DNA from: Patescibacteria group bacterium
GTDB lineage: Bacteria > Patescibacteriota > Patescibacteriia > 2-12-FULL-57-11
Assembly: GCA_038054875.1 (NCBI GenBank)
Contig: JBBUJK010000025.1
Coordinates: forward strand, 1-37,959
Direction of reading: 5' to 3'
Length of the DNA: 37,959 nucleotides
The translations under genes were made by a program, and so were the position numbers. The notes under the pieces were generated by a model. That model was not told the origin of the DNA. It saw only the letters and a list, made by a program, of their open reading frames with translations, and did no database searches. Below, one piece after another: positions 10,703 through 37,959 of this stretch (the stretch's first letter is position 1; each line of letters starts with the position of its first letter).

Positions 10703-10703
10703 T

Positions 10704-11090: not shown

Positions 11091-11095
11091 TACGA

Positions 11096-11131: not shown

Positions 11132-11190
11132 AGGTGAGAGATGTAAAGATAATTGCCAAAATGCTTACATCTATCAAGACGATGTAAAGA

Positions 11191-11763
11191 TCAGTGCAAA
11201 TACCGGAAGCAGCTCGTAAGGTGATCATTGACCATCCCCACGGCCTGCATGTGCGCGTAGACGACGGTGGGGCCGAGGAAGGAGAAGCCGCGCTTTTTGA
11301 GATCCTTGGACCAAGCCACGGCCTCGTCCGTAGTGACCGGACACTCGCCCGGCGTTTTGAAGGCGTGGCGGACGGCTTTGTCGCCGACCCAGGTCCACAT
11401 GTACGTGGAGAAGGCGCCGAACTCTTTTTGGACCTCCAGGAAGCGTTGGGCGTTGTTGACCGCTGCGACGATCTTTTGGCGGTTGCGGATGATGCCGGCG
11501 TCCGAGAGGAGGCCCTGAACAGCACGATCACTCATGCGGGCGACCTTGGCCACCTCTAAGCCGTGAAAGGCCTTGCGGAAGTTTTCGCGCTTGTGCAGCA
11601 CGGTGCGCCAGGAGAGCCCGGCCTGGAAGGTTTCAAGCACCAGGAACTCGTAGATTTTCTGGTCGTCATGCACCGGCACGCCCCACTCGGTGTCGTGGTA
11701 GGCGATCATGAGCGGGTCCTGTGCCGGCCATGGGCAGCGCTGCTTTTCGGCGGGTCGGTGCAT
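11191..11763 (-). CDS. tag: DNA-3-methyladenine glycosylase I
   Basis: RCPW, YHDTEWG, LETFQAGLSW, GIIRNRQKI, GMVNDHLTSC. Confidence 0.96.
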   Translation of the reverse strand: MHRPAEKQRCPWPAQDPLMIAYHDTEWGVPVHDDQKIYEFLVLETFQAGLSWRTVLHKRENFRKAFHGLEVAKVARMSDRAVQGLLSDAGIIRNRQKIVAAVNNAQRFLEVQKEFGAFSTYMWTWVGDKAVRHAFKTPGECPVTTDEAVAWSKDLKKRGFSFLGPTVVYAHMQAVGMVNDHLTSCFRYLH

Positions 11764-11861
11764 AGGCAGACAGGCTAACACGGGACCAGAAGGGGATCAA
11801 AAGCCCGGATTCGCAGTCTGGACAGCCTCGGGGCCGCCTGCTAAACTATCGGCACAATTTT

Positions 11862-11936
11862 GGTCCGGTAGTGAAGCGGTTATCACGGTACCCTGTCACG
11901 GTACTATCACGAGTTCGAATCTCGTCCGGACCGCCA
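11862..11936 (+). tRNA. tRNA-Asp (GTC)
   Basis: Acceptor stem GGTCCGG/CCGGACC, anticodon arm GTACC-CTGTCAC-GGTAC, GTTCGAATC T-loop, encoded CCA. Confidence 0.97.
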
Positions 11937-11938
11937 TG

Positions 11939-11969
11939 AAAAGCGTCTCACCTTGTGTGAGGCGTTTTT
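11939..11969 (+). terminator. Terminator after tRNA-Asp
   Basis: AAAAGCGTCTCAC...GTGAGGCGTTTTT hairpin. Confidence 0.75.
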
Positions 11970-12024
11970 CGTTGCGTATGGTCGGCACTTGGAGTTCGGT
12001 CTGCAATATGGTGAAATGACGTGC

Positions 12025-14982: not shown

Positions 14983-14984
14983 CT

Positions 14985-17441: not shown

Positions 17442-17521
17442 AGGAAAACATCCACAAGATAAGCATTCCTATCTATCGAAAGGCGGTGAAAAATTCGCTA
17501 TAATGTTCATATCCGCCGTAT

Positions 17522-18925: not shown

Positions 18926-19757
18926 CAAAAGAAACAACAAGTTTCATTATAGCCCCTTGAGGTACCCGGGAGGAAAGACCTCTCTGTTTCCGTTTTTCGA
19001 CAAAGTGATCAAGCAAAATAATCTCGAAAATGTAACTTACATCGAACCATTTGCCGGTGGCGCAGGAGCGGCACTAGCTTTGCTTTTTTTGGAGAAAGTC
19101 GAACGAATCGTCATTAACGACCTCGATAAAGCAATCTACTCGTTTTGGAGGTCGGCAATTTTTGATTCCGCAAAATTCATAAAGAAAATTCATTCGACCC
19201 CAATCACGGTAAAAGAGTGGAGAAAACAGAAGGCAATTTATAGTAATCCTAAAGCCAAACGGTTTGAGTTGGGGTTCGCAACCTTTTTTCTCAATCGAAC
19301 AAACATGTCCGGCATTTTGGATGGCGGACCGATTGGTGGTGTAGATCAAAAGGGGAAGTGGAAAATTGACGCCCGATTTAATAAGGAAAAATTGTCAGAA
19401 CGAATCCATCAGTTGTCTCTCTATAAAAACAGAATTTCTGTTTTCAACAAAGATGGGATTGAGCTGATCGGCGCCTATTTGAAAAAGAAAAATGCTTTTA
19501 TTTATCTTGACCCGCCATATTTTGAGAAAGGCGCGACACTCTATCTGAACCATTACAAAAAGGACAACCATGCTGCTCTGGCTAAGCGCCTGAATGATAG
19601 CCCGGATGCTTTCTGGTTGCTTACTTACGATAACAAGAAAGAGATCAAGGCACTCTATCCAGACAGACAAGTTGTGAATTTCTCTTTAAACTACAATGCC
19701 TACGAGTCACGTAAAGGAAGAGAAATCATGGTCTTCTCCGATGCGCTTGTCTCCTAA
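18909..19757 (+). CDS. Dam/D12-class N6-adenine DNA methyltransferase
   Basis: SPLRYPGGK, YIEPFAGGAG, INDLD, YLDPPY; overlaps the upstream gene by 17 bp. Confidence 0.93.
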   Translation: MFKINNKRNNKFHYSPLRYPGGKTSLFPFFDKVIKQNNLENVTYIEPFAGGAGAALALLFLEKVERIVINDLDKAIYSFWRSAIFDSAKFIKKIHSTPITVKEWRKQKAIYSNPKAKRFELGFATFFLNRTNMSGILDGGPIGGVDQKGKWKIDARFNKEKLSERIHQLSLYKNRISVFNKDGIELIGAYLKKKNAFIYLDPPYFEKGATLYLNHYKKDNHAALAKRLNDSPDAFWLLTYDNKKEIKALYPDRQVVNFSLNYNAYESRKGREIMVFSDALVS

Positions 19758-19851
19758 GATAGATCTCCGATCTTTCGGGGTCAGGTTTTGAGATATCGCA
19801 CCCTTGACTCCCACGCTCGTGTTCGACTAGGGTCCTCGCAGGAGGAAACGA

Positions 19852-20310
19852 GTGACGGAACAAAAGCAGCAGTACGCCTACGTCGGTGTGGATCCGATCG
19901 TGCTCTTTGGTCGGCTGATCGTGCTGGCCAAGCGCGGACCGGATGCCAAGACAGGGCCTGGGGTGTGGCACACGCCTGGCACGGTGGTTCGCATCGGCCA
20001 GAACATGGAGAGCGCGATGTGCAGCCGCGTTCGCGAGAAGACCGGGCTCGTGGTGAGGCCGCTGTGCGACACCATGCAGCAGTCCTTCGTCCGTTTCTAC
20101 GACGACCTTCAACGAATCAACGAGTACGGCGACATCGCGCTCTCGTTCCTGAGCCGGGTCGTCGGCGGCGAGATGTGGCCGGGGGAGCACATCGCCGAGG
20201 TCAAGGCCTTCCGTCCCGACGAACTGTCGTCACTGCACATCGGCTTCGACCACGCGCAGATCCTCAAGGACGGCATCGCCCGGCTGCGCGATCTCGGCGA
20301 GATCGACTAG
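19852..20310 (+). CDS. NUDIX-fold protein with degenerate Nudix box
   Basis: GVWHTPG...SRVREKTGL, GFDHAQIL; GGAGG SD before the GTG start. Confidence 0.78.
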   Translation: MTEQKQQYAYVGVDPIVLFGRLIVLAKRGPDAKTGPGVWHTPGTVVRIGQNMESAMCSRVREKTGLVVRPLCDTMQQSFVRFYDDLQRINEYGDIALSFLSRVVGGEMWPGEHIAEVKAFRPDELSSLHIGFDHAQILKDGIARLRDLGEID

Positions 20311-20326
20311 TCGCGGCAGCAGTCGC

Positions 20327-20353
20327 GAGAGCGCTTCGGCGCTTTTCTTTTTT
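20327..20353 (+). terminator. Intrinsic terminator with UUCG loop
   Basis: GAGAGCGC-TTCG-GCGCTTTT followed by a T tract. Confidence 0.75.
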
Positions 20354-20363
20354 ACCGGTCGCA

Positions 20364-20437
20364 ATAACCGTGAAAATCAGCGTTTACGAGTAGTTTTTCA
20401 CGGTTATGTTGACAAAACCGTGAAAACTGCCTAGAAT
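20364..20437 (+). promoter_or_regulatory. sigma70 promoter with three-box operator upstream of the Fic gene
   Basis: TTGACA (20409)-17 bp-TAGAAT (20432); ATAACCGTGAAAA (20364-20376), its inverse (20395-20407) and a third AACCGTGAAAA in the spacer (20416-20426). Confidence 0.85.
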
Positions 20438-20445
20438 AGAGGTAT

Positions 20446-21327
20446 ATGGCGAAAATACTGAATGTTTTTAGCAGAATAAGCTCTCTCCGTGAGAGATATT
20501 ACAAAGCATCCACAGGCAAAGATGCGCTTATTCGTCTTATCAGTGAGGCCGAAGTAGCTGAGCAGGTGTACAACTCAAACGCGATTGAAAATAGCACGCT
20601 GAGTTTTGAAGAAACGGAAAAGATACTTCTTCAGATTAATTTGGACAGATTCGTTTCCGAACGGGAAATTTTTGAAACAAAGAATCTCGCGCGCGTCGTG
20701 TCATACATTGACAAAAGAGCGAAAGAGCAGGAGCTCACGCTTGAGGTGATTTTGTCGCTTCATAAAATGTTGATTTCAAACATCCGCGATGATGTTGCCG
20801 GAAGATTTCGAAGTGATGATGAATATGTTCGAGTGGGGAGCCATATCGCGCCGGCTCCAAAAGAAGTGAAAGAAAGACTTGAAAAGATGTTTGCGGAATA
20901 TAACGCCGCAAGTCATGAAAATATCATCAGGCGTATTGCGCGTCTGCACCTCACCTTTGAATACATACACCCGTTTGTTGATGGGAACGGTCGTATCGGA
21001 AGAGTGATGAATAATTACTTGCTCATTCGAGAGGGCTTTGTACCGGTGAATATTAAATTTATCGACCGTAAGATGTATTACGAAGCGTTCAAGGAATTTG
21101 ATGCAGATGGCACGACAAAAACGATGGAGGAAATTGTCGGAAAATCGCTCACGAACAGTTACCATAAAAGACTTGCCTATTTAGAGGGTGCGGAAATAAT
21201 GTCACTCTCCGCATATGGAAAGAAGAACAAGTTGTCGCATTCAAACCTCATTAATAAAGCCAACAGGCAGACGATAGAGGCTTTTCTTGAGAAAGGAGAA
21301 TGGAAAATCGCGATACCGAAGAAATAA
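20446..21327 (+). CDS. Fic family protein with N-terminal autoinhibitory motif and possible C-terminal HTH
   Basis: HPFVDGNGRIGR Fic motif; SNAIEN matches (S/T)xxxE(G/N). Confidence 0.92.
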   Translation: MAKILNVFSRISSLRERYYKASTGKDALIRLISEAEVAEQVYNSNAIENSTLSFEETEKILLQINLDRFVSEREIFETKNLARVVSYIDKRAKEQELTLEVILSLHKMLISNIRDDVAGRFRSDDEYVRVGSHIAPAPKEVKERLEKMFAEYNAASHENIIRRIARLHLTFEYIHPFVDGNGRIGRVMNNYLLIREGFVPVNIKFIDRKMYYEAFKEFDADGTTKTMEEIVGKSLTNSYHKRLAYLEGAEIMSLSAYGKKNKLSHSNLINKANRQTIEAFLEKGEWKIAIPKK

Positions 21328-21335
21328 TACAAGTC

Positions 21336-22019
21336 ATGAAAAAGGTCGCCATATTCGACATCGACGGCACGATCTTCCGCTCCAGTCTGCTGATTGAATT
21401 GATGGCGGTTTTTGTGCGTGAAGGCGTGATGCCGGCAGAAACGCAGAAGGTCTACGCCCAGGCACGCGCGAAGTGGCTCGATCGTGAAGGTTCGTATGAG
21501 GAGTACATCAGCGCCGTAGTCAGGGCCTTTGAGTCGCGGATACGGGGAGTGCCGAGCAAGACCTTTTTGAGAATTTCCAACAGGGTCGTGGCTGCGTCCG
21601 GCAAACGCGTCTACCGCTACACGCGCGATCTCATACAGACCCTGCGGCGGAAGAAGTATTTTGTGTTGGCCGTGTCGAATTCTCCGAAGATTATTCTTGA
21701 TCCGTTCTGCAAAAAATGGGGCTTCGATAAAGTCTACGGGAGGATCTACGAAACGGATCCGCGCGGACGGCTGACCGGAAAAACAGCGCACCTTGATTTG
21801 ATCTCCGATAAGGCCAAGATTCTTAAGCGCGCGGTGGAGCGCGGAGGACTGACGCTCAAAGACTCCATCGGCGTCGGGGATTCGGAAGCCGATATCCCAT
21901 TCCTCAAACTCGTCGCGCATCCTATCTGCTTCAACCCCAATCACAAGCTGTTTGTGGCGGCCAAGCGTCATGGCTGGAAGGTTGTCGTGGAACGGAAGGA
22001 TGTTATTTATACGGTGTAA
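21336..22019 (+). CDS. HAD-superfamily (subfamily IB, PSP-like) hydrolase
   Basis: FDIDGTI, VSNSP, GVGDSEAD, FNP. Confidence 0.9.
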   Translation: MKKVAIFDIDGTIFRSSLLIELMAVFVREGVMPAETQKVYAQARAKWLDREGSYEEYISAVVRAFESRIRGVPSKTFLRISNRVVAASGKRVYRYTRDLIQTLRRKKYFVLAVSNSPKIILDPFCKKWGFDKVYGRIYETDPRGRLTGKTAHLDLISDKAKILKRAVERGGLTLKDSIGVGDSEADIPFLKLVAHPICFNPNHKLFVAAKRHGWKVVVERKDVIYTV

Positions 22020-23947: not shown

Positions 23948-24020
23948 GGATGATCGGGGATTTCTCACCCCGCGGGGGTTCGAAATGACATGGCTTGGCC
24001 ATGCGGCTCCTTGGGATGAC
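23948..24020. repeat. GTCAT-tagged palindrome unit, right flank of the GIY-YIG gene
   Basis: First 43 nt match 23490-23532 with two mutually compensatory substitutions. Confidence 0.88.
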
Positions 24021-24072
24021 GAAAAAGCGGTATAGTGATTGCGATCTGGGCCATCGGCCCGTTATTTCGCCT

Positions 24073-26274
24073 ATGCGCACATTTATTTCTCGCCTCGCTC
24101 TGGCTGCTCTGGCCGTTTCGGCCATGGCGCCGCTCTCCGTCGCCGCCATCACCGACTCGACGCCGCCCGTGGTGTCCTCGGTCACGCCGACCACGACGTA
24201 CAAGAACCAAGCTACGACCTACGATGTAACGACGAGCGACGACATTGCCGGCGTCGACGGCTGCGATTTGTACGTGAACACCGTCAACCAGGGAGCCATG
24301 ACCATGACGTTGATCAGCGGCATGAACTGGAGGGCCACCCGTTCCTACACATACACGGGATCCGCAGGGACCATTTCCATCTACGCCCGCTGCCGCGACG
24401 GCGCCATGGTACCGAATTTCGCGAACGGTGCGACGACGAGCATCACCATCTTCGTGGACAACTCGCCGCCGGCGGTCTCGAACCTCCTGCCGGCCACGGC
24501 CACGGTCGGCGTGGCCACGACGATCAGCGCGTTTGCCATGGATGACGAATTCGGTTCCGGGATCAACACCTGCGGGGGAATTATCGATGGTGTAGAGTCC
24601 GGCCTCATGACCCCGTCGGGCTCGACCTACTCGCTCTCCGGCGTGACGTTTTCCACCGCCGGTTCGCATACCCTCCAGGTGAACTGTTTTGACCGGACCG
24701 GCAACCTGGGTACGGCATCGCGGACCGTGACGGTCTCTGCGCCCGCCGACACCACGGCGCCCGTCGTCAACCAGATCGATCAATCCACGGCCACGGCCGG
24801 AACCGCGCTCACGCTGACCGCCATTGCCATGGACAACGTCGGCATCAGCAGTTGCTCGCTTTATGTCGGCGGTGTTTCGCAAGGGACGATGGCCGTCTTG
24901 GGTGGGGTTGCTTCCCGCAGCCACACTTTTCCGGCAGCTGGAAGTTACGCTGCAGATGTTCGCTGCACAGATGCCGCCGGGAATCCGACGACTGGCGCAT
25001 CGCGCACCATTGTTGTCGCCGCTGCAGCTGATTCCACGCTCCCGACGGTTACAGGCGTTGGACCTACAACGGCTTCGACCGGCAGCGCCGTTACGCTGAC
25101 CGCGACGGTCGCTGACAACATCGGCGTCAGCAGCTGCACGCTCTACGTCGGCGGCACGTCGCAAGGCGCCATGACGGTCTCGTCCGGCGTCGCCAGCCGC
25201 AGTCACACCTTCGCGAGCGCAGGAAGTTCCTCAGTGGAAATTCGCTGCGTTGATGCTGCGGGGAATACGGGAACCGGCAGCGCAACGGTCACGGTCAGCG
25301 CGTCGCCTGCCACGGCGGACACCACGTTGCCGATCGTCGGCCAGGTCGCGCAGACCACGGCCACGGCCGGAACCGCGATCACGCTGACGGTCGCGGCCTC
25401 GGACAACATCGGCATTTCCTCCTGCACGCTCTACGTCGGTGGTGTCTCTCAGGGCACCATGGCCGTGTCCGGCGGGAGCGCCTCGCGTAGCCACACGTTC
25501 TCCTCATCTGGAAACATCGCCGTGGAAGTGCGCTGCACGGACGCGACGGGGAACATCGGCATCGGCGTTTCGCGCACCATTGTCGTGGCCGCAGCCGTGA
25601 CGCCGGTACCGCCCACGCCGGTTCCAATTTCCACGGGCGCGGATCTTGATACGGACGGCGATGACTTGTCCGACGCCGATGAGGCGGTCTACGGCACAAG
25701 TCCCACGAACCGCGACACCGATGGCGACGGATTTGCCGACGGCACGGAAGTGCGCAACGGCTACAATCCGTTGGGCGCGGGCCGCATCAGTCCGCCGACG
25801 ACATCCGCCGTACCCGGGCGCCTCATCAAGCTGGCGTGCCCGGCAGGCGCGAACGGCTATCATCCTTGCAAGGCCGTGTACTACTACGGCCGCGACGGCA
25901 AGCGGCATACATTCCCGAGCGCGCGCATCTACGCCACCTGGTTCAATGACTTTTCCACGGTGCAGGTGGTGGACGCTGCCTTCATGGCGTCGTTGTCCGT
26001 CGGCAAAAACGTCCTGCCACGGCCGGGCGTGCGGCTCGTGAAATTCGAGACCGTGAACACGGTGTATGCCGTGGACCGCGGCGGCATTCTGCGCGGCATC
26101 TCCAATGAGACGGTGGCCGCGGGAATCTATGGAAGCACTTGGAACACGAAGCTCGATGATGTCGTCGACACCCTGTTCGGCAACTTCCTGATCGGCACCG
26201 ACATCACATCGGCCTTGGACTACAGCCCGGCCACGGTCACCGCCGGCACGACGTCCATCGACGGGAACTTCTAG
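24073..26274 (+). CDS. Secreted surface protein: five Ig-like repeats, DxDxDG repeats, CPR-type C-terminal domain
   Basis: Signal peptide; five D(S/N/T)xxPxV-initiated repeats of about 95-100 aa, each with two Cys; DTDGDDLSD/DTDGDGFADG; GRLIKL..C...CKAVYYYGRDGKRH. Confidence 0.85.
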   Translation: MRTFISRLALAALAVSAMAPLSVAAITDSTPPVVSSVTPTTTYKNQATTYDVTTSDDIAGVDGCDLYVNTVNQGAMTMTLISGMNWRATRSYTYTGSAGTISIYARCRDGAMVPNFANGATTSITIFVDNSPPAVSNLLPATATVGVATTISAFAMDDEFGSGINTCGGIIDGVESGLMTPSGSTYSLSGVTFSTAGSHTLQVNCFDRTGNLGTASRTVTVSAPADTTAPVVNQIDQSTATAGTALTLTAIAMDNVGISSCSLYVGGVSQGTMAVLGGVASRSHTFPAAGSYAADVRCTDAAGNPTTGASRTIVVAAAADSTLPTVTGVGPTTASTGSAVTLTATVADNIGVSSCTLYVGGTSQGAMTVSSGVASRSHTFASAGSSSVEIRCVDAAGNTGTGSATVTVSASPATADTTLPIVGQVAQTTATAGTAITLTVAASDNIGISSCTLYVGGVSQGTMAVSGGSASRSHTFSSSGNIAVEVRCTDATGNIGIGVSRTIVVAAAVTPVPPTPVPISTGADLDTDGDDLSDADEAVYGTSPTNRDTDGDGFADGTEVRNGYNPLGAGRISPPTTSAVPGRLIKLACPAGANGYHPCKAVYYYGRDGKRHTFPSARIYATWFNDFSTVQVVDAAFMASLSVGKNVLPRPGVRLVKFETVNTVYAVDRGGILRGISNETVAAGIYGSTWNTKLDDVVDTLFGNFLIGTDITSALDYSPATVTAGTTSIDGNF

Positions 26275-29541: not shown

Positions 29542-30096
29542 TCAGATTTTGGCAATAAGCAGCGTCATGCGGCCGCCCTGCTTGGACACGGGTTGCTCGA
29601 TGCGCACTGCCACATCCTGTTTCACGCGCTCAACGAAACCGTACATGACTTTCTCGGCCAAGGCCGCATGGGCCTTCTCGCGGCCGCGCAGAATCAGTTC
29701 GACCTGCACTTTGTCGCCGTCCTCAAGGAAGACCATGGCTTGGGATTTGCGGATGTCGAGGTCGTGGATGCCGATGCGCAGGGACAAACGCACGCCTTTG
29801 ATTTCCACTTTCTTGGCATGGGCCTTTTGCAGACGGTCTTTCTTTTCCTGTTCGTACTTGAACTGGCCGTAGTTCAAGTATTTGCAGATCGGAGGAACGT
29901 CCTTCGGGGAAATTTCCACCAGGTCGAGGCCGCGCTCATGCGCCTGGGCAATGGCCTCGGCGAGCGGGAGGACCCCGACGTGGACGCCGTTCTCATCGAT
30001 GATGCGGACTTCTGGAACGGCGATTTTTTCGTTGACGCGGAATTTGGGTTCCTCGACGCGCTGTTGGAACTTCCGGCGGTGACGCGAAATGCGCAT
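29542..30096 (-). CDS. infC: Translation initiation factor IF-3
   Basis: VNEKI..PEVRII, GLDLVEISP, PPICK, YGQFKYE, GDKV...RGRE. Confidence 0.96.
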   Translation of the reverse strand: MRISRHRRKFQQRVEEPKFRVNEKIAVPEVRIIDENGVHVGVLPLAEAIAQAHERGLDLVEISPKDVPPICKYLNYGQFKYEQEKKDRLQKAHAKKVEIKGVRLSLRIGIHDLDIRKSQAMVFLEDGDKVQVELILRGREKAHAALAEKVMYGFVERVKQDVAVRIEQPVSKQGGRMTLLIAKI

Positions 30097-30118
30097 TGTG
30101 TGGAATGAAATTATCTGT

Positions 30119-30173
30119 GTAGGGGCAGGCCTTGCGCCTGCCCTGTTTGGGCGACCGCAAGGGTCGCCCCTAC
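30119..30173. repeat. GTAG-type REP inverted doublet
   Basis: GTAGGGGCAGGCCTTGCGCCTGCCC-tgttt-GGGCGACCGCAAGGGTCGCCCCTAC. Confidence 0.85.
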
Positions 30174-30218
30174 GCACGTGTACATCTTCATCTGGGATCA
30201 TCTTCTGATGATCACAAG

Positions 30219-30598
30219 TGGAGATGGTGGGATTTGAACCCACGTCTAGAACTCAGGACCGCGGATGCTCTACGCGCGTAGAACGCTTTGAGAGTCCGGC
30301 GAGCGGTCAAAAGCGTCCAAAAGACGCTCGCCGCAAGCCCCGTGGATCTGACGGCTGCGTCGGGGCCGACGCAGACGCGAGCCTGTAGATGACGTCCGGA
30401 TCCGCTCCGACAGGCGCGGAGCGGGGGACGGTCAGGTCGTTTTTAGGCGACTGACGGGACCAGGCTCGGAACGCGCAATGCGTTCGTCACCTTGGTGAGT
30501 GCGTTGGCACTTCAGAGGTTCCACGGATTGGGACGCGGGTGCCGTGGATCGCGGCGCGCACATCCGGCGGATGAATCCTATCGAATCCAGACATCCCC
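30219..30598 (-). ncRNA. ssrA: tmRNA
   Basis: 5' GGGGATG...GGATTCGA; 3' GTGGGTTCAAATCCCACCATCTCCA with G3-U acceptor pair; predicted tag ORF 30508-30443 ANALTKVTNALRVPSLVPSVA*; directly downstream of smpB. Confidence 0.95.
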
Positions 30599-30614
30599 AT
30601 ATGGAAAGATCTGC

Positions 30615-31094
30615 TCACTTCTTCGGGCGAAGAAGCGCGCGGCGAGTATCACGGTCCACGGCCTTCTTGCGAAGCGCGTCCCGTTTCTCGAATTGCTGTT
30701 TGCCGCGGGCCAGCGCAAGGCGAAGCTTCACGCGACCGCCCTTACTATAGGCAGAAACAGGCACGAGTGTCAATCCGGTTTTGTCGGTTTTCCCGGCAAT
30801 TTCCTGGAGTTCCTTTTTGTGGAGGAGGATCTTCCGGCTCCGGTCCGGGTCCTGCGCGATGCTGGGACCGGCCGGCTTGAAACGGGCGACGTGCGCGCCG
30901 ATCAGCCAGGCCTCGCCGCCGCGCACCACCACGAACGCGCCGGACAAGCGCAAACCACCGGTTTTCGCGGATTTGGTCTCCGGACCGGTCAGAACAATGC
31001 CCGCTTCGTATTCTTGAACGAACTCGTAGTCGCGGCGGGCCCGGCGGTTGTCGGCAAGCAGGTCGGACACAGGCGTAGGGGCGTGATTCATCAC
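30615..31094 (-). CDS. smpB: SsrA-binding protein SmpB
   Basis: NRRAR.DY, EAGIVLTG.ETKS, R.RKILLHKKE, ARGK...KR. Confidence 0.97.
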   Translation of the reverse strand: MMNHAPTPVSDLLADNRRARRDYEFVQEYEAGIVLTGPETKSAKTGGLRLSGAFVVVRGGEAWLIGAHVARFKPAGPSIAQDPDRSRKILLHKKELQEIAGKTDKTGLTLVPVSAYSKGGRVKLRLALARGKQQFEKRDALRKKAVDRDTRRALLRPKK

Positions 31095-31147
31095 GCCCGG
31101 ACAAGTATAGCGTTCCTAGGGCTGTTTTGGTACGCTTCCCATGTCCT

Positions 31148-32191
31148 ATGGCAGAACACAAGCAGGAACTCGTCGTCCACATTTCCACCAAGACCTACCT
31201 CCGCGCGCTGGGAGTCGGCGTGGGCGTCTTTTTGTTGTGGTACCTCTCGAACGTTGTTTTCATCCTACTTCTGTCGATCGTGCTCGCCGCGCTCATCCTG
31301 CCGTTGGCGCACTGGGCGGAGAAACGCCGCATCCCGCGGGCGGTCGCGGTCGGCGCGGTGTACGTCGTGCTCATCGCCATTGTCTCCGGCGTGCTTTCAC
31401 AGATCGTGCCGCCGGTCGTCAGAGAATCAACCGAGCTGTTCAAGAGCGTTTCGGTGCTGATGCGCGAATGGCTGCCCAGCTGGCTCGACTTCGGTAAGAC
31501 GTTCTTGGGTTTCTCCGGGACGACACCGAGCTCGCTGCCGAACATCGGCAGCACGATTTCCGACGCGGCGTTCGGCGCGTTCACCGGCATCCGTGGCGCC
31601 ATCGGTGATGTCATCACGTTTATCCTGGTCCTCGTCATCTCCTTTTATATGGTGGTCGAGGAGGCGGCCATTCATCGGATGCTCAAATCAGTCATCCCGG
31701 CGGAGAAGTACGCAGTTCTCTCCGTGGCGCTCGGGAAGGCCCAGGAGAAGATGGGGCTGTGGCTGCGCGGCCAGCTCATACTGATGCTGATCATCGGCAT
31801 CGTCATCTACGGCGGACTGGCCATGTTGGACGTGAAGTATGCATTGGTGCTCGGTCTGTTCGCCGGGCTCATGGAGTTCATCCCGTACGCCGGGCCGTTG
31901 CTCGCGTTCATCCCGGCGGTGCTCATAGCGTTGTCTGATTCGCCGCTGAAGGCGATTCTCGTAGCTCTCCTCTTCATCATCATTCAGCAGTTGGAGAATC
32001 ACGTGCTCGTGCCCAAAGTCATGCAGAAGGCCGTGGGCATCAACCCGCTCATCTCGATTTTTTCGGTCCTGATCGGCATCCGGCTGGGCGGCGCCATCGG
32101 CGCGCTTGTGGCCATTCCCATTGCCACCTGCGCGATCGTTTTTGTGAAAGACTACCTCGCGCTGCGCAACGGGACGGCGCCGGAACTATGA
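31148..32191 (+). CDS. AI-2E family transporter (PerM/UPF0118)
   Basis: WLRGQL, FIPYAGP, QQLENHVLVPKVM, GALVAIP; multi-TM. Confidence 0.92.
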   Translation: MAEHKQELVVHISTKTYLRALGVGVGVFLLWYLSNVVFILLLSIVLAALILPLAHWAEKRRIPRAVAVGAVYVVLIAIVSGVLSQIVPPVVRESTELFKSVSVLMREWLPSWLDFGKTFLGFSGTTPSSLPNIGSTISDAAFGAFTGIRGAIGDVITFILVLVISFYMVVEEAAIHRMLKSVIPAEKYAVLSVALGKAQEKMGLWLRGQLILMLIIGIVIYGGLAMLDVKYALVLGLFAGLMEFIPYAGPLLAFIPAVLIALSDSPLKAILVALLFIIIQQLENHVLVPKVMQKAVGINPLISIFSVLIGIRLGGAIGALVAIPIATCAIVFVKDYLALRNGTAPEL

Positions 32192-32586
32192 AGTCACCGG
32201 TGAGGATGGCGCAGATCGTGGCGATTGCGGTTGCCGCGCTTGTGCTTATCATCGTCGGTGTGGTCCTCTGGAAGACGTTTGCGTCGAAATCTGCAACGCC
32301 CGGTACGAACGGCCCTGTTCCGATCGCCGCCCAACCGCTCGCCGACTATCCGACCGCATCCAACGAGGCCGTGCAACAATTCTCCGCGGCGCTTTCCTCT
32401 GGCGACGATGCCGCGCTCCCGGCCGCTGCAGAGCGCACCAAGAATGCGCTCATGGGGCTGACCGTTCCGGCTGACGCCCGCGCGTCGCACCTCGCCCTTA
32501 TTCTCGCGCTTTCGCGTTTTGAACAAGACCCGTCTCCGGAGGCGCGCGCCGCGCTCGCCGCCGCTGTCGAGGCATTTTCCCGCTAA
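32188..32586 (+). CDS. Membrane-anchored hypothetical protein
   Basis: ATGA overlap with the upstream stop; N-terminal TM. Confidence 0.7.
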   Translation: MKSPVRMAQIVAIAVAALVLIIVGVVLWKTFASKSATPGTNGPVPIAAQPLADYPTASNEAVQQFSAALSSGDDAALPAAAERTKNALMGLTVPADARASHLALILALSRFEQDPSPEARAALAAAVEAFSR

Positions 32587-32590
32587 GCCC

Positions 32591-33355
32591 ATGCCGCTGC
32601 TTCGGCACATTCTGTCGCTCGTGCCGGGGCTCGCCGCCGCGCTGTTGTTCATCGTCGCACTGCGCGATCCGCTCAACGCGCCTCCGCTGTTTGTGGTTTG
32701 GCTCGTGGTGTTCCTGGTGTCTTTCATCATCGTTTCCGGCAAAGAAGCGCGTCCCGGCGCGTTCTGGTTTTTGGCAGTGCCGCCGGTGGCACTTGTGTTC
32801 GGCACCTGCGCGTTTCTGTTCCTGCTCGAGAATCGCGGCGTCGGTATTGCCGTTGCCGTGGGGACGAGCATGCTCACGGCCCTCTTTGGTTATACGCAAT
32901 TTCTGTTCGTTCGGCAGCCGGCCCGTTACCAGTCCTATTCCTTGGAATCGTTGTCTCTAGCCGCGAATCTTGCCGCTTTCTTCCTGATCGGTGCGTCCAT
33001 CTTGGGTTACGTATCCCTGTTGTCCCTCCCGCAATGGGTCGTGGCTTCCACCGTGCTCGGGGTGGCAGGACTCCTTGTTGCGGAAACGCTGTGGGTGAGC
33101 AAGGTGCGCGGAGAACGTCTGCCCGGACTCGTCATTGCCGGATCGCTCCTCCTGGCCGAAGCCGCGGTTGCACTCCTGCTTTTGCCTGTTTCGTTTCTTG
33201 TTGCCGGGGCCGCGCTCGCCGTGACGTATTACGCCGTGGTCGGCCTTTTGCGCGCGCACGCGCTTTCGGCCTGCGGAGTGCGCGTGGTGCAGCGGTATGT
33301 CGGCGTGGCGCTTGTGGCGGTTGTTGTTATTGTCGGCACGGCCCGCTGGATTTGA
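32591..33355 (+). CDS. Polytopic membrane protein
   Basis: About 8-9 hydrophobic segments; tight operon spacing; ends TARW. Confidence 0.75.
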   Translation: MPLLRHILSLVPGLAAALLFIVALRDPLNAPPLFVVWLVVFLVSFIIVSGKEARPGAFWFLAVPPVALVFGTCAFLFLLENRGVGIAVAVGTSMLTALFGYTQFLFVRQPARYQSYSLESLSLAANLAAFFLIGASILGYVSLLSLPQWVVASTVLGVAGLLVAETLWVSKVRGERLPGLVIAGSLLLAEAAVALLLLPVSFLVAGAALAVTYYAVVGLLRAHALSACGVRVVQRYVGVALVAVVVIVGTARWI

Positions 33356-33356
33356 T

Positions 33357-34397
33357 ATGACTTCGCGTTCCTCTTCTTCTTTACCGCTGATCATCGCGAC
33401 CGCGCTCGTGGCCGCGGCCGCTGGTGTGGCCGGCGCGCTGGTCGTTGCCGCATATGTGCTGCCGCCGTCTGTTCCCGAAGGTGCAGCAGGGACGCGCACC
33501 GGCCGTTCCATACAAAACAGCGTTGATGCCGAAGCGTTATCTCGGGCAGCAGCGGCAACGGTTCGCGTGTATGTGGGAGCTGGCATCAAAACGGCTGCCG
33601 GCATGGTATTTGCGGCGGAACAGCAGCGCGGCGCGGGCGTGGTTCTGACTGCTGACGGGTGGATTGCGGTGGAACGTTCTACCTGGAGCGCCGAGGCAAC
33701 GCTCGTGTCTGCCGCGGGTCATCGTTTGACCGTGGAGCGCAGCGTCGACGCTGTTGCATTCAATCTGGTGTTCCTCAAAACCGACGGACGCGACCTGACC
33801 GTTGCCGTGTTTGGCGACAGCCGCATACTCCAAACCGGGGATGACCTGTTCACTCCTGCGATCGGTGGGTTTGCACCTGTGCCGTTCGTCTCCGCCGCCG
33901 TGCAGGATGGCGCGCCATCTCTTCCAGAAACAACCGCCGATTTCCGGCGCCGCTTGGCCTTGGGGGTCGAAGTGACGCCGCCTGGCGCGCCCGTCTTTAG
34001 CGGCAGCGGCGATGTGGTCGGCGTGGCTCTGCCTGCCAAAACCGGAGAACAGGGGAGAGCTTTGCCCGTGGAAGTGTTGCGCATCGCGCTCGGCCGCGTG
34101 CTTGCGGATCGCGTCGTGGCCGCCACGGACATCGGGGTCCGCGGCCTGCCGCTCGCCGCTATTTCCGTGCCAGACCCGGCATTGGCCGTGCGCGGCGGCT
34201 GGTACGTGACCGAAGTACGCCGTGCAGCATCTGGATTGCGCGTCGGCGATCTGGTCCGCTCCGTCGGCAGCGACGCCGTCACTCCCTCGCGTCCGCTTGG
34301 TGAAATTCTCGCAGAATCCTCCAGCAGTGCGCGGCCGGAACTGCTCGTGCTGCGCGACGGACAGGAACTGCGCATTCCGGTAACGCTCACACCTTAA
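33357..34397 (+). CDS. HtrA-like trypsin+PDZ protein lacking the catalytic triad
   Basis: GAGVVLTADGWI, FGDS..L..GD, GAPVF..SGDVVGV and a PDZ-like tail; His/Asp/Ser motifs replaced. Confidence 0.75.
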   Translation: MTSRSSSSLPLIIATALVAAAAGVAGALVVAAYVLPPSVPEGAAGTRTGRSIQNSVDAEALSRAAAATVRVYVGAGIKTAAGMVFAAEQQRGAGVVLTADGWIAVERSTWSAEATLVSAAGHRLTVERSVDAVAFNLVFLKTDGRDLTVAVFGDSRILQTGDDLFTPAIGGFAPVPFVSAAVQDGAPSLPETTADFRRRLALGVEVTPPGAPVFSGSGDVVGVALPAKTGEQGRALPVEVLRIALGRVLADRVVAATDIGVRGLPLAAISVPDPALAVRGGWYVTEVRRAASGLRVGDLVRSVGSDAVTPSRPLGEILAESSSSARPELLVLRDGQELRIPVTLTP

Positions 34398-34398
34398 T

Positions 34399-34857
34399 AT
34401 GCGTTTCAACACGAAACAGCTTCGTCTTGTCGGCGTGTGTGTCGTGATAGGTTTGGCCGCTGCAGCCGTGTTTATTTTTCTCCAGCCATTGCGTGCCGGT
34501 GCCACGGTCCGGCTTTTGGTGATCCCGCGGAGCGATGCCGCGGAAGCTGGCCATGACGCGCGGGTGTTGGCCGCGGTCGTCAGAAGCACCGACTTTTTCA
34601 CCAAAGTGGCGGCGCAGGACCCACAGATTTCCTGGGCAGATTTTGGCGACAAGGATGCGGACCGTCGCGTTCGCTGGCAGAAAATAATCCATGCTGCGCC
34701 CGACGAAAAAACCGGTCTCCTGACCCTGACCGTGCGCCACCCTGACCGTGCGCAGGCCGGACGCATTGCCCAAGCCGTGGCCGATGTCCTCACCCGCCGG
34801 GGCGGGGAATATCTGGCAGGGAATCCGCAGGTGATGCTCGTGGATCCGCCGCTCTGA
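34399..34857 (+). CDS. Wzz/chain-length-determinant-like membrane protein, possibly truncated
   Basis: N-terminal TM, A.VRLLVI, LA.VV.S..F, TGLLTLTV...D..QA..IA. Confidence 0.6.
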   Translation: MRFNTKQLRLVGVCVVIGLAAAAVFIFLQPLRAGATVRLLVIPRSDAAEAGHDARVLAAVVRSTDFFTKVAAQDPQISWADFGDKDADRRVRWQKIIHAAPDEKTGLLTLTVRHPDRAQAGRIAQAVADVLTRRGGEYLAGNPQVMLVDPPL

Positions 34858-34862
34858 TGTAG

Positions 34863-34942
34863 GACTCCCTCCGTCTCCCTCTTCGCAAGAGGGAGGGATA
34901 CCCGTGTTTCTCCCCCTTGCGAAGGGGGAGTACTGAGGGAGT
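34863..34942. repeat. C/G-rich 'CTT-CGC-AAG' hairpin doublet, second copy
   Basis: CTCCCTCTT-CGC-AAGAGGGAG and CTCCCCCTT-GCG-AAGGGGGAG, enclosed by ACTCCCTC/GAGGGAGT. Confidence 0.85.
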
Positions 34943-35096
34943 AAACTTCTAGCTAAAAACAGGGGCCTTGACCCCTGTTTTCCTGTTTGCTAGGGTCCCC
35001 ACATCGTTGAAAATGGGCGGAAAAGGCCAGAAATAAGCCTTTTTCGTGAGATCGCTGGGGAATGGCCCCTCGGCGACTCGGATACGCCGGGCATCG

Positions 35097-35119
35097 GCCC
35101 TTCGACTACCGCTCAGGGC
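35097..35119. repeat. Single GA/GA-type palindrome
   Basis: Minus strand GCCCT-GA-GCGGTAGTC-GA-AGGGC; same architecture as the 7332 and 23573 units and the intragenic copies. Confidence 0.65.
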
Positions 35120-35123
35120 GGGG

Positions 35124-35152
35124 TTGACAAAAGCTGGCTGCCGTGGTATTGT
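35124..35152 (+). promoter_or_regulatory. sigma70 promoter
   Basis: TTGACA-17 bp-TATTGT with an extended -10 TG. Confidence 0.7.
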
Positions 35153-35440
35153 CCGCCGTTAATTCGGAGCCTTGAGGCGGTTTGGTGCGAGGCCCGGGAT
35201 GCCTCCTCCTCATCACGAGGACTCACACCAAACCACTTCAGGGCTTCCGTAACGGAGGGGCCTGTATTCGACAGGGTTCCTCCATTGCGGGGACCCCTGT
35301 TGTGTTCCTTACAACGTTGTTCTCACGCGTTCCGACGCGCAGACCACTCATGATCTGCGGTTCGGAGCGCGCAGCCTGCGAAGGCGCCTCCATGGGCATA
35401 GTGCCCAAGTCGCCTACGCAGGCAGAAGAGGAGAACTCAG

Positions 35441-37060
35441 ATGAAGAAGACGAACCTGTCGCTGGCTTTGGCCGGCGTCGCCATGGCTTTCCTCGCCGCC
35501 GCTCCCGCGGAGGCGCAGGACAGCTGCCAGCAGCCCGAGTGCATTCGGGCCCGGGAGATCCGGGACCGGATGAACGCCATCACGGAGTGCAACGCGGACA
35601 ACGCGGAGGAGGTCATCCGCCTCTCCCGCGAAGCCGCGACGGCGCTCACGGCGTGCGAGGCGCGTTCGGCGGCTTGTGCCACGGCGTACCGCACGGCGGT
35701 GGAGATCATCCGCAACGGATGTGACCCGGCGGCCATCGCCCGCGAGCCCTCGTTCTGCGAGGCGCGGTGCACGGCGCGCGGCCACGGCACCTGGTGCGCG
35801 GCTGGCGACAGCCGCGCCGAGTGCCAGTGCGCAAGCGACAGCGCGGGTCGGTCCTGTCGGCGCGAGCGCGATCGATCGACGACCGCGCACTGGTGCGCGC
35901 CGGTACGGGGATATCAGATCCTCGACCGCTGCCTCCCGCGGCGCATCCCGCCCCCGCCGCCTCCGGAGCCACCGGTTCCGCCTCCGCCCCCGCCCGACGC
36001 CCGCTGCAACGTGGGCATCGATGCGGACGGCGACGGCGTCCCGGACCTGAGCAGCACCTGCATCCCGGACGACAACTGCCGGATCCGGTACAACCCGGAT
36101 CAGTCGGACGTCGACACGGACGGGGAGGGCGACGCGTGCGACGACGACGACGACCTCGAGGGTCTGCGCCGGGAGATCAATGCCCGGTTCCAGAACCTCT
36201 GCGTCGCCGTCACGGACCAGACGCCCGTGTGCGTCCTGATCCGTCAGTTGCGTGGTGGTCACGAGCCCCGGGTCTCGCTCGACGAGATCTGGAGCGAGCT
36301 CCGACGGCTCGCTGCCGAGGATGTGGAGATCAATCGCCGCCTCGACGAGGTGGAGAGGATCCTTCACGACCACGGCGACATGATCGTCGACCTCGGTCGG
36401 CGTATCGGTCTGTTCATGGATCGCGTCGAATGCCTTCGCCGCGGCCGGGACTACCGTCTGGCCACGGAGGAGCGCGTCGCGGGTCATGAGGTCGGCGAAC
36501 AGGCGGAAGGGACGATGATCCGCGAGGATCGCGTCGTCTGTCTCGAGACGTGCGTCGACACGGACGCGGAGTTCAACTCCGAGTCCGGACGCTGTGAGGC
36601 ACGGCCGATGCTGCCGGGTGAGTTCGACCTCTCGGTCGGACCTGCGGTCAGCTTCTACGACGAGTTCACGCTCGGTGTGGAGCTGGACGCGACCTGGTGG
36701 CTGCAGGAACGGTTCGGCTGGTCCCTCTGGGGATTCGCCGGGCTGACCGTGGTTCGCCAGCCGGTGCTCGACATCGCTGTCGCCACCGGGCCGTCGTTCC
36801 GGCTCGTGCTCGAGAGAGAGTTCTCACTCGATCTCGGACTCGGCGCCTTCGGACGCAACGGCACGTCGCTGCGCGACGGAACGGTCGGAGTCTTCACCGG
36901 CTTCGGCGGCTACGTCGACTTGGCGGCGATCGTCGGCAACAGGCGCAGTGATGTGCGAGTGCGAATCTTCGGACGGTTGCTGCTCGGGTTCGCCGACAGT
37001 GATCAGACCGATCCGCACTTCGCACCCGGCGTCATGGGCGGTCTGCAGCTGACCTTCTAG
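35441..37060 (+). CDS. Cys-rich secreted protein with TSP3 repeat, coiled coil and predicted C-terminal beta-barrel
   Basis: GAGGAG SD; signal peptide ending AEA; DADGDGVPD...DNC...NPDQSDVDTDGEGDACD; alternating amphipathic strands ending GGLQLTF. Confidence 0.8.
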   Translation: MKKTNLSLALAGVAMAFLAAAPAEAQDSCQQPECIRAREIRDRMNAITECNADNAEEVIRLSREAATALTACEARSAACATAYRTAVEIIRNGCDPAAIAREPSFCEARCTARGHGTWCAAGDSRAECQCASDSAGRSCRRERDRSTTAHWCAPVRGYQILDRCLPRRIPPPPPPEPPVPPPPPPDARCNVGIDADGDGVPDLSSTCIPDDNCRIRYNPDQSDVDTDGEGDACDDDDDLEGLRREINARFQNLCVAVTDQTPVCVLIRQLRGGHEPRVSLDEIWSELRRLAAEDVEINRRLDEVERILHDHGDMIVDLGRRIGLFMDRVECLRRGRDYRLATEERVAGHEVGEQAEGTMIREDRVVCLETCVDTDAEFNSESGRCEARPMLPGEFDLSVGPAVSFYDEFTLGVELDATWWLQERFGWSLWGFAGLTVVRQPVLDIAVATGPSFRLVLEREFSLDLGLGAFGRNGTSLRDGTVGVFTGFGGYVDLAAIVGNRRSDVRVRIFGRLLLGFADSDQTDPHFAPGVMGGLQLTF

Positions 37061-37080
37061 GAGGTGAGCGCGGACTGCAC

Positions 37081-37129
37081 CTGAGCGGAGAGAGGGACAA
37101 CACCTCTCTCCGCTCAGGACACATTTTTT
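37081..37129 (+). terminator. Terminator-like hairpin
   Basis: CTGAGCGGAGAGAGG...CCTCTCTCCGCTCAG followed by a T tract. Confidence 0.65.
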
Positions 37130-37332
37130 CCTTCAATGAATCAACGCGCGCATCTCCAAGAGGTGCCCGCATGCGTTCCTTGAATCCTGCCGTGTGCACG
37201 TCCCAACCTGGGGAATCAATCTGGTTCCTCGTGTTGGGGCGTGCATGTGTGATGCGGCGCCCCCGAATACCGGTTTGACCGGATTCGAAGCGCCAATCAC
37301 ACGGCACAAACAAACAACGACAGGAGACTCAG

Positions 37333-37959
37333 ATGACACGAACGATGGTGTTCTTGGTTGCGGCGATCACGGCGACGGTCGTTGCGGGGTGTTACGACCC
37401 CGAGTCGACGGGACCGCATCAGGGTCCCGTGGCCGACGCCGGCATCGTGCCGACGTCCGATGGCGGCCCCGTTCCGACGGCCTGCGAGAGCGACCCGCTC
37501 ACGCAGGACCAGGACGGCGACAGGTGGTGCCCCTCGGGGCGCGACCTGGACGCCGACGGCACCTGCTGCGACTCCGGGGAGGCCTTGCCGGCCGACCAGG
37601 GGGACTGCGACGACGATCAGCGCGGCGCCGGGGGCATCTCCAACCCCGGCGTGCACGAGATCTGCGGCAACGGGATCGACGAGGACTGCGGCGAGACGCC
37701 GTGTGCCACGCCGAGCTCCTGTCCAGACCTCGACGAGCTCGATCCGGACTGCGATCCGTCGCTCAATGTGTGCGACGCGGATGCGGTCTGCGCGGACGGG
37801 AGCTTCTGCACGGTGAACGTGCGCTGCGCGGACCATCGCTGCATCGCGGGTATCCCCCGCGTCTGCGACGACGGCAACGCGAGCACGGCCGACACGTGTA
37901 ACGAGGCGGCCGATCGCTGCGACTACGTGCCGCTTCCCAGCTGCACGACGCACGCGGCA
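37333..37959 (+). CDS. Cys-rich lipoprotein with MopE-like metal-binding and CDDGN repeats (3'-truncated; absent from the ORF track)
   Basis: AGGAG SD; MTRTMVFLVAAITATVVAG-C lipobox; DQDGD..DCDD..NPGVHEICGNGIDEDC; CDDGNASTADTC; open to the window end. Confidence 0.85.
   Translation, partial: MTRTMVFLVAAITATVVAGCYDPESTGPHQGPVADAGIVPTSDGGPVPTACESDPLTQDQDGDRWCPSGRDLDADGTCCDSGEALPADQGDCDDDQRGAGGISNPGVHEICGNGIDEDCGETPCATPSSCPDLDELDPDCDPSLNVCDADAVCADGSFCTVNVRCADHRCIAGIPRVCDDGNASTADTCNEAADRCDYVPLPSCTTHAA

Follow-up and report, generated by a model that had tools for sequence, protein, structure and literature searches.

This locus raises the question of how a tiny, apparently single-membraned groundwater bacterium comes to encode a protein of a barrel type otherwise built only into bacterial outer membranes. 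The presence of an outer-membrane-class β-barrel is taken to indicate an outer membrane and the BamA/Sam50 assembly machinery, and it is used to infer whether uncultured bacteria have one membrane or two. The window analyzed here is the entire 37,959-nt contig JBBUJK010000025.1 (forward strand; assembly GCA_038054875.1) from a member of the Patescibacteria, or Candidate Phyla Radiation (CPR). Near its 3′ end lies a gene for a 539-residue protein, hereafter the barrel gene and the barrel protein, whose C-terminal 149 residues are predicted to form such a barrel. An initial annotation made from the letters alone had described a signal peptide, a Cys-rich part, a poly-Pro stretch, a TSP3 repeat, a coiled coil and a series of strands ending in GGLQLTF, and we recovered each of these features in its place.

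We modeled the protein with AlphaFold2, both whole and as the barrel alone. The whole-protein model, built on an alignment of 7 sequences, had a predicted local distance difference test score (pLDDT) of 62.9 overall, with 10-residue blocks at 74-93 from residue 371 onward and eight long strands between residues 394 and 538. The barrel-only model, built on an alignment of 9 sequences (alignment A2), was a closed barrel of eight strands with a pLDDT of 91.7 and a predicted template modeling score of 0.83. Its strands are 12-17 residues long and its loops 1-7 residues, and the loops opposite the termini have only 1, 5, 5 and 6 residues, so that few polar residues would have to cross a bilayer. 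When the whole-protein model was compared with the PDB by Foldseek, all 15 matches at E ≤ 0.001 were outer-membrane barrels, among them OmpA, Ail, NspA, OprF-N, OmpW, OmpX and a Legionella porin. An exhaustive structure alignment of the barrel model to 48,161 PDB representatives placed NspA first (Z 16.4, root-mean-square deviation 2.5 Å, 144 residues aligned), followed by OmpW (16.3), OmpA (16.2), a Thermus outer-membrane protein (15.9), Legionella porin III (15.7) and OprF-N (15.6). The ten best matches were all integral outer-membrane barrels and covered 115-145 of the 149 residues, and the separate model in the ESM Atlas reached TM scores by query of 0.76-0.83 to clusters of PF13505 type. 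The structure check thus returned the barrel that the initial annotation had read from alternating strands, and the models predict a fold of the outer-membrane class of OmpA, OmpX and NspA; this fold and the trimer described below are predicted from shallow alignments.

Sequence comparison returned no corresponding family. At E ≤ 10 the barrel profile had no match among PDB sequences and no Pfam family matched the query barrel, with one of nine members matching TraO (E 0.081). The strand residues themselves separate into two faces, one of 57 residues with a mean hydropathy of +2.21 and a single charge (16 L, 10 V, 9 F, 2 W, 2 I) and an opposite one of 59 residues with a mean of -0.59, 13 charges and 14 Gly. 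The difference between the faces was 2.80 versus 1.26 ± 0.33 in shuffled sequences, a value that none of 2000 shuffles equaled. We infer that the hydrophobic face points outward, because the barrel matches outer-membrane barrels and because its 39 large hydrophobic side chains exceed what an eight-stranded lumen can hold. The last residue in 10 distinct family members is F in eight, W in one and L in one, and is therefore aromatic in 9 of 10. A catalytic barrel of the PagL/PagP type was considered and rejected, because the invariant columns of nine barrels comprise only Val, five Gly, Arg and Pro, with no invariant His, Ser or Asp.

The two faces and the structural matches also bear on an alternative in which the C-terminal domain is a soluble or lipid- or ligand-binding barrel of the avidin, lipocalin or haemophore type, or in which the model is wrong. 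Soluble eight-stranded barrels (avidins, designed soluble barrels and haemophores) were also listed as structural matches at Z 8-12, yet at no more than Z 12.3 and over about 99-113 aligned residues they fall below the ten integral outer-membrane barrels, which also account for every significant Foldseek match. Whereas amphipathic alternation is silent on which face points out, the hydrophobic face appears too bulky for a lumen, and the other face, with its Gly, small and charged residues, resembles the interiors of OmpA and OmpX; strands of 12-17 residues likewise speak for the membrane type. The shallow alignments and the lack of a sequence match to outer-membrane families are consistent with a soluble barrel or an erroneous model, which we nevertheless consider improbable.

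We then asked if the gene belongs to the CPR genome in which it was found. The window (contig C25) comes from a genome of 889,201 bases in 45 contigs (79.7% complete, 0.68% contamination), all of which have a G+C content of 0.56-0.64, and it also holds ybeY, ftsA, ftsZ, nrdR, infC, a tmRNA and genes for an HtrA-type protease and pyruvate kinase. A homologue is carried by L003, an 855,898-base contig of a patescibacterial metagenome-assembled genome of the same genus (G002; two contigs, 99% complete). Positions 30000-37927 of the window are collinear with positions 4621-12485 of L003, which was assembled independently. Identity is 80.6% over 4887 nt upstream, 77.7% over the intergenic stretch 34956-35313, and 71.4% over 36536-37927, which takes in the 3′ part of the barrel gene and its neighbor. 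In addition, one public contig covers 34869-35728, from the intergenic stretch into the barrel gene. Because of this collinearity and this spanning contig, we conclude that the window is not chimeric at the barrel gene and that the gene is inherited in the lineage. The chimera that the initial annotation had asked to exclude at 34.9-35.4 kb is thereby excluded, as that intergenic stretch lies within the collinear segment.

Just 3′ of the upstream gene, at 34863-34940, the window contains two short GC-rich hairpin repeats. Depth there in public run X1 was 46.9 versus about 9, and many contigs end at this point with unrelated loose ends, which argues that the repeat is present in multiple copies in the community. 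Public contigs break at the repeat without bridging it, and the question of a chimera was decided by synteny with L003.

An origin of the gene in foreign DNA, either through a binning or assembly artefact or through a very recent transfer from a diderm, has been largely refuted by these data, and we give it only the slimmest chance. The breaks of short-read contigs at the repeat just upstream would fit an artefact, but the public contig that spans into the gene and the collinearity with L003 at all three levels of identity do not. The local G+C content of 0.67 is somewhat above the contig mean of 0.58; values of 0.64-0.67 are also found at 25-29 kb of the same contig. Furthermore, homologues occur in all three genomes of the genus and in one from another genus, a similar lipoprotein gene comes after each of them, and no relative was detected in the diderm phyla searched.

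The distribution of the family is narrow. The barrel profile found a single copy in each of the three genomes of the genus (the window's own included) and in one genome of a second genus, and none in the other 3 of the 5 genera of the CPR family. None of the remaining Patescibacteria genomes, out of 401 sampled at class level and 401 at phylum level, gave a credible match. The phylum sample yielded, besides the window's own gene, only two marginal matches (E 0.003-0.006). A match in genome G308 (E 2.6e-5) was rejected as compositional, as it is an internal stretch of a Gly/Thr-rich fibrous protein. Together with a few metagenomic sequences, the profile search and public protein collections gave 10 distinct members, all from one CPR family. 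Full-length homologues are 41-58% identical, and the barrel is the best-conserved part of the protein, with identities of 76, 66, 65 and 62% compared to 58, 49, 48 and 48% over the whole protein.

Outside this family, the barrel profile gave two matches in 301 genomes of the Acidobacteriota phylum (sampled via a Pyrinomonadaceae-titled genome), the better of which (E 6.9e-4) contains three internal stop codons, and six chance-level matches (E 0.0014-0.0077) in 301 genomes from the phylum to which a Myxococcota-titled genome belongs. As about three such matches per 300 genomes are expected by chance, we name no donor. We found no sequence relative of the barrel outside the CPR family in a word-indexed profile search that covered longer proteins, stand-alone barrels of 80-260 residues lying outside it. 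Proteins with TSP3 repeats make up 145 of the best 150 matches of the whole protein in the full library, below which weaker, barrel-only relatives may rank. Feature matches in the ESM Atlas (0.95-0.96) were hypothetical proteins of 139-153 residues, most common in Acidobacteriota, which are at most candidate relatives. Acquisition from a diderm host such as a myxobacterium, which the initial annotation had proposed, is unsupported, since no donor was found in the searched phyla; synteny is conserved in two genera, and the only outside matches are at chance level. The TSP3 repeats do not point to myxobacteria either, because other surface proteins of the window carry them. A distant origin of the barrel is conceivable.

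To evaluate whether the barrel is accompanied by the genes of an outer membrane, we searched the genomes of the CPR family for markers of outer-membrane biogenesis. Omp85 was detected in none of the seven genomes of the family, five of which are at least 90% complete, and neither was PF13505 (OMP_b-brl). LptD, LpxC, secretin, OEP/TolC, TamB and POTRA domains were each detected in none of the four genomes searched (G000-G003), which include the 99%-complete two-contig genome. Control searches for these markers were positive in 2 to 8 of 14 named control genomes, and the negatives from the window's genome (79.7% complete) were repeated in two relatives at 98-99% completeness. The lack of bamA and lpt genes that the initial annotation had presumed for this small Patescibacteria genome therefore agrees with our searches. 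In a crude screen for C-terminal amphipathicity over 2168 stop-to-stop frames of at least 150 residues, the barrel open reading frame ranked second, and by reading the four other top frames were not barrel-like: one is probably a wrong frame, and the others resemble an aminoacyl-tRNA synthetase, an epimerase and a membrane permease. The barrel protein thus looks to be a lone barrel, outside any outer-membrane proteome.

These findings agree with published descriptions of the phylum, several of which are cited here from excerpts. Patescibacteria are described as monoderm (PMC11665869, excerpt), and Chloroflexi, CPR and Dormibacteraeota form a clade reported to be monoderm, with porins and SLH domains lost (10.1101/2021.05.31.446380, excerpt). 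Transmembrane barrels have been predicted in classes that include monoderms (Actinomycetia, Firmicutes) in a study whose excerpt makes no mention of Patescibacteria (PMC10629564). Among literature considered by title and opening of the abstract, none described an outer-membrane-type barrel in CPR, and none joined patescibacterial epibionts with a host outer membrane.

One reading that bears directly on these searches is that members of this CPR family possess an unrecognised outer lipid layer, for which the protein would serve as a wall tether, as an analogue or remnant of the OmpM/SlpA proteins of diderm Terrabacteria (PMC10628300, excerpt; PMC9388160). The barrel protein shares with OmpM/SlpA an N-terminal (in OmpM, periplasmic) domain, an extended trimeric coiled-coil stalk (predicted here) and a C-terminal barrel, and like them it could serve as a membrane-to-wall tether. 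CPR are placed in the Terrabacteria beside lineages thought to have lost their outer membrane (10.1101/2021.05.31.446380, excerpt), and a diderm cluster in the ESM Atlas joins TSP3 repeats, a PF13505 barrel and an OmpA domain. On the other hand, OmpM/SlpA have an SLH domain, a large porin barrel and a diderm outer membrane, whereas the barrel protein has eight strands per chain, no SLH domain and no sequence relation to them. The uniform absence of outer-membrane markers, the presence of a sole barrel-like open reading frame by both profile search and crude screen, and the description of the phylum as monoderm (PMC11665869, excerpt) also argue against such a layer. Given that the family is found in 2 of 5 genera and in none of the other ~790 Patescibacteria genomes sampled, it is too narrow for an ancient remnant, and we regard this reading as very unlikely.

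Several further parts lie N-terminal to the barrel. The signal peptide, MKKTNLSLALAGVAMAFLAAAPAEA, is followed after its cleavage point by QD, and its AAAPAEAQ block is kept in 6 of 7 aligned homologues. The mature protein begins with a domain (residues 26-165) that is helical in the AlphaFold2 model at a pLDDT of about 40-67. The protein contains 24 cysteines, 17 of them invariant in the 7-homologue alignment. The N-terminal domain had no relatives in Pfam, NCBIfam or the ESM Atlas, and all of its structure matches in the ESM Atlas had a TM score by query below 0.5. The Pro-rich linker that follows differs in length between homologues. A contig in public run X5 has other letters across it (35948-35994), and the linker appears to be length-variable between strains.

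The next segment is an Asp/Cys repeat, which we compared with the known TSP3 families PF02412 and PF18884. Pfam TSP_3 was the sole match in a scan of the whole protein at E ≤ 0.1 (E 0.069, 13.3 bits, under the cut-off of 25), and neither an SLH domain nor a YadA-anchor was matched. Despite this sub-threshold score we consider the repeat TSP3-like, because matches concentrate there: 145 of the best 150 phmmer matches of the whole protein in the full library are confined to residues 159-294, and all 19 partial matches of the indexed search carry PF02412. NCBIfam matches of the protein are also confined to the repeat region, far under their cut-offs. Two other predicted surface proteins with TSP3 repeats are encoded by open reading frames at 2-877 and 23995-26274 of the window, the latter also with Big_7 and PKD domains. 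Judged by sequence, TSP3-type calcium repeats recur as a module in the surface proteins of this organism.

Between the repeat and the barrel, the AlphaFold2 model contains a helix at residues 280-333. When three copies of residues 276-539 were co-folded, the trimer score was 0.69, compared to 0.08 for the best control; 20 of 30 solved pairs and 1 of 23 single chains attain the mark used, a calibration that is based on two copies and other alignments and is only roughly valid for three copies. The trimer runs shared at least 74% of their contacts, with a partner pLDDT of at least 76. Contacts recur at a spacing of 3-4 residues from 280 to 333, with identical residue numbers paired across copies, and the connector between stalk and barrel contributes further contacts at 335-337, 372-375 and 384-387. 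Barrel residues are absent from the inter-chain contacts, and the three barrels stand apart in the model. The stalk is thus predicted to be a parallel, in-register coiled coil of ~54 residues and roughly 8 nm, with the model favoring a trimer.

To place this layout, we compared the barrel protein with known systems. The small eight-stranded outer-membrane barrels used for comparison were NspA (1p4t), the OmpA transmembrane domain (1bxw/3nb3), OmpX/Ail (1qj9/3qra), OmpW (2f1t) and the N-terminal domain of OprF (4rlc), along with PF13505 and PF01389. The query shares with them the predicted fold, the number and length of strands, a hydrophobic exterior, a Gly/polar interior and the terminal aromatic, with 129-145 of 149 residues aligned, but it has no detectable sequence similarity to them. 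The terminal aromatic we take to mark a β-signal-like last strand. Whereas the small outer-membrane barrels are N-terminal or stand-alone, the query barrel lies C-terminal to a large passenger region, all of its loops are very short, and its producer has no BamA and, by the tested markers, no outer membrane. With respect to membership in this class, the query has the predicted fold, lipid-facing belt and terminal aromatic, and lacks both a profile match and a BamA-built outer membrane.

Other systems share parts of the architecture. YadA-type trimeric autotransporters likewise have an N-terminal head, a trimeric coiled-coil stalk, a C-terminal barrel anchor and a terminal aromatic. In these proteins a single 12-stranded barrel is shared, with 4 strands from each chain, and BamA helps the passenger across it. 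In contrast, each chain of the query is predicted to form a complete eight-stranded barrel, the barrels do not touch in the model and there is no match to the YadA-anchor. The designed transmembrane barrel 6x9z has the minimal eight strands and very short loops of the query barrel model, to which it aligns at Z 14.8 over 115 of 120 target residues. Designed transmembrane barrels fold into membranes unaided. They are artificial and stand-alone, and the likeness shows only that the query's geometry is compatible with unaided insertion. CdiA (PMC13625785, excerpt) provides a precedent, as it is a surface protein that enters the outer membrane of a neighboring cell from the outside and assembles there. 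However, CdiA is made by diderms, has a size of about 300 kDa, is exported by an Omp85-family partner, depends on a receptor and delivers a toxin; the query has no sequence relation to it and shows no evident toxin domain, receptor-binding domain or partner. The models therefore predict a known fold in a new architecture, in an organism where such a barrel is unexpected.

A conserved and confidently predicted barrel without an assembly machine implies one of three situations: delivery into another cell, a barrel in the cytoplasmic membrane, or an unrecognised CPR outer layer. We propose that the barrel protein is a lineage-specific envelope protein that would be exported through Sec, rich in disulfides and trimerized through its ~8-nm coiled-coil stalk. 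Each chain would present the Cys-rich head and TSP3-like repeat first and end in a complete, lipid-embedded eight-stranded barrel with very short loops. After secretion, the barrel would insert itself into a bilayer without an assembly machine encoded by the producer. Self-insertion is suggested by the absence of BAM-type (β-barrel assembly machinery) genes from the genomes searched, by crossing loops of 1, 5, 5 and 6 residues, and by the spontaneous folding of outer-membrane proteins into lipid bilayers in vitro (PMC7383365, excerpt). Both termini of the barrel would remain on the side of entry. The assembly would act as a tether or "grappling hook", with the three barrels anchored in a membrane and the stalk, linker and head reaching about 10-20 nm to the target of the head. 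The membrane entered would be the outer membrane of a diderm host at the contact between epibiont and host.

Four considerations lead us to favor the host outer membrane as the target. Unlike any other kind of membrane anchor, a barrel could leave the cell before insertion and enter a distant bilayer afterwards, and for its own membrane the cell already has lipoprotein (lipobox) anchors. CPR bacteria live as epibionts, some of them on diderms, and one patescibacterial epibiont is reported to have gammaproteobacterial hosts (10.1101/2024.03.08.584096, excerpt). Finally, the entry of CdiA into a neighbor's outer membrane is a precedent for a surface protein acting in this way (PMC13625785, excerpt). 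We advance a self-inserting barrel anchor on a trimeric stalk, directed to a host outer membrane, as a tentative proposal with somewhat less than an even chance of being correct. The complete scenario is possible but doubtful: a trimeric hook, secreted by a monoderm CPR epibiont, would sink its three self-inserting OmpX-like barrels into the outer membrane of a diderm host and so tether that membrane to the epibiont surface.

Several points weigh against a host outer membrane as the destination. We found no RNA or protein data that would locate the protein, and the host of this lineage may not be a diderm. The unfolded barrel would have to pass the producer's wall and then enter the host outer membrane from its outer leaflet, and OmpX, PagP and OmpW fold poorly without BAM in native-like lipids (PMC7383365, excerpt). 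The head has no wall-binding or membrane-anchoring module recognisable by Pfam, NCBIfam or the ESM Atlas with which to hold the producer. The fold and the trimer are predicted from alignments of only 9 and 7 sequences, and the outward orientation of the hydrophobic face comes from the considerations given above rather than from model coordinates. Lastly, the bilayer nearest to a Sec-exported chain in a monoderm would be the cell's own membrane.

This last point leads to the main rival, in which the self-inserting barrel is a C-terminal anchor in the producer's own cytoplasmic membrane, entered from the outside after Sec export. The protein would then act as a fibril, an adhesin or a membrane-to-wall tether, its trimeric stalk carrying the Cys-rich/TSP3 head into the wall or an S-layer or beyond it, in a layout like that of OmpM or of a trimeric autotransporter minus the outer membrane. 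The same evidence on fold, trimer and lack of BAM applies to it, and it is physically the simplest arrangement, as the chain emerges at this membrane and need not pass the wall, and both barrel termini remain on the entry side. The order of head, stalk and C-terminal barrel is that of surface adhesins seated in the producer's own membrane, such as the trimeric autotransporters, and a single-copy, monocistronic gene amid housekeeping genes is consistent with such a role. No outer-membrane-type barrel, though, is known to reside in the cytoplasmic membrane of any bacterium, and a novel barrel would be an odd choice for a cell that already anchors many surface proteins in its own membrane by lipoboxes. 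Moreover, head groups of the phosphatidylethanolamine/glycerol type suppress spontaneous insertion in vitro (PMC7383365, excerpt). Taken together, we consider anchoring in the producer's own membrane a serious rival, somewhat less probable than insertion into a host outer membrane.

Each outcome would carry its own consequence. If the proposed insertion into a host membrane is correct, a cell that lacks an outer membrane would, for the first time, be seen to make an outer-membrane-type barrel and to deliver it in trans to the membrane of another cell. Delivery of barrels by epibionts would add a new means of attachment in CPR, a group with few known host-binding molecules. If the barrel instead enters the producer's membrane, outer-membrane-type barrels can reside in a cytoplasmic membrane, and if an outer layer is present, some CPR have one that has gone unrecognised. 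In each case, the locus calls for caution in genome-based calls of cell-envelope type.

Features of the locus are collected in Table 1. The barrel gene is a single-copy gene with housekeeping genes around it, and a ribosome site, GAGGAG, lies 7-12 nt 5′ of its start codon. The promoter-like site upstream of it is the sole one in 34700-37500, compared to a mean of 0.1 in shuffled sequence, and it falls in the stretch with 77.7% identity to L003, as does the 5′ part of the leader. This leader, of ~280 nt, has a minimum free energy of -150.4 kcal/mol versus -103.4 ± 5.1 for shuffled sequences (z -9.2), with none of 200 shuffles as stable, and Rfam gave no match in it at the gathering threshold. 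The upstream gene also has a terminator after its end. With its own promoter-like site and leader and a strong terminator, the barrel gene looks monocistronic.

Table 1. Positions in the window of the barrel gene, the parts of its product and the adjoining elements.
Feature	Positions	Strand	Basis or remarks
Promoter-like site: TTGACA, 17-nt spacer with TG, TATTGT	35124..35152	+	10/12 consensus matches
Long structured 5′ leader of the barrel gene	35160..35440	+	Transcript start inferred after the promoter-like site
Open reading frame for the 539-residue protein	35441..37060	+	ATG start
Sec signal peptide, residues 1-25, cleavage after AEA	35441..35515	+	Read from sequence
N-terminal Cys-rich, mostly helical domain, residues 26-165	35516..35935	+	Invariant Cys and C..R.HG.W motif
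Pro-rich linker, residues 170-185	35948..35995	+	Read from sequence
TSP3-like Asp/Cys repeat of calcium-binding type, residues ~189-237	36005..36151	+	DxDxDG-type motifs and Cys visible
Coiled-coil stalk, residues 277-333, predicted parallel in-register homotrimer	36269..36439	+	AlphaFold2 helix 280-333, co-folding
Small β-rich Cys-containing connector, residues 334-390	36440..36610	+	Invariant C367, C371, C385
Predicted C-terminal eight-stranded outer-membrane-type β-barrel, residues 391-539 (149 residues), end GGLQLTF, with stop codon	36611..37060	+	AlphaFold2, structure comparison
Intrinsic-terminator-like hairpin closing the transcription unit	37080..37118	+	16-pair stem, 11 G-C pairs, then T run
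Downstream Cys/Asp-rich lipoprotein gene, lipobox VAGC, truncated by window end	37333..37959	+	Conserved neighbor, candidate partner

In all four genomes examined, which belong to two genera, a gene for a Cys/Asp-rich lipoprotein lies downstream of the barrel gene and on its strand. In the relatives this neighbor is found at 11783-13963 of L003, at 3-1301 of contig L084 (minus strand) and at 2-829 of contig L083 (minus strand), and the PF11617 MopE motif was confirmed in the L003 and L084 neighbors. The conserved pairing of the two genes across two genera hints at a functional link between their products.

Two further regions of the window merit description. Two genes upstream of the barrel gene, at 33297-34397, a 366-residue protein conserved in L003 has weak, sub-cut-off matches to trypsin-like and PDZ domains (E 0.013 and 0.012), and a canonical HtrA-type protease is encoded at 6086-7327. 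The 33297-34397 protein may be a degenerate, possibly non-catalytic HtrA paralogue. From about 10000 to 22000, the G+C content is 0.44-0.52 (0.57 in the 11-12 kb bin) compared to about 0.60 elsewhere. This block contains a tRNA-Asp gene (11862-11936), a SocA/Panacea antitoxin-like gene, a ResIII helicase/restriction gene, two DNA methylase genes and a Fic gene, and by its composition and gene content it looks like an integrated defence island.

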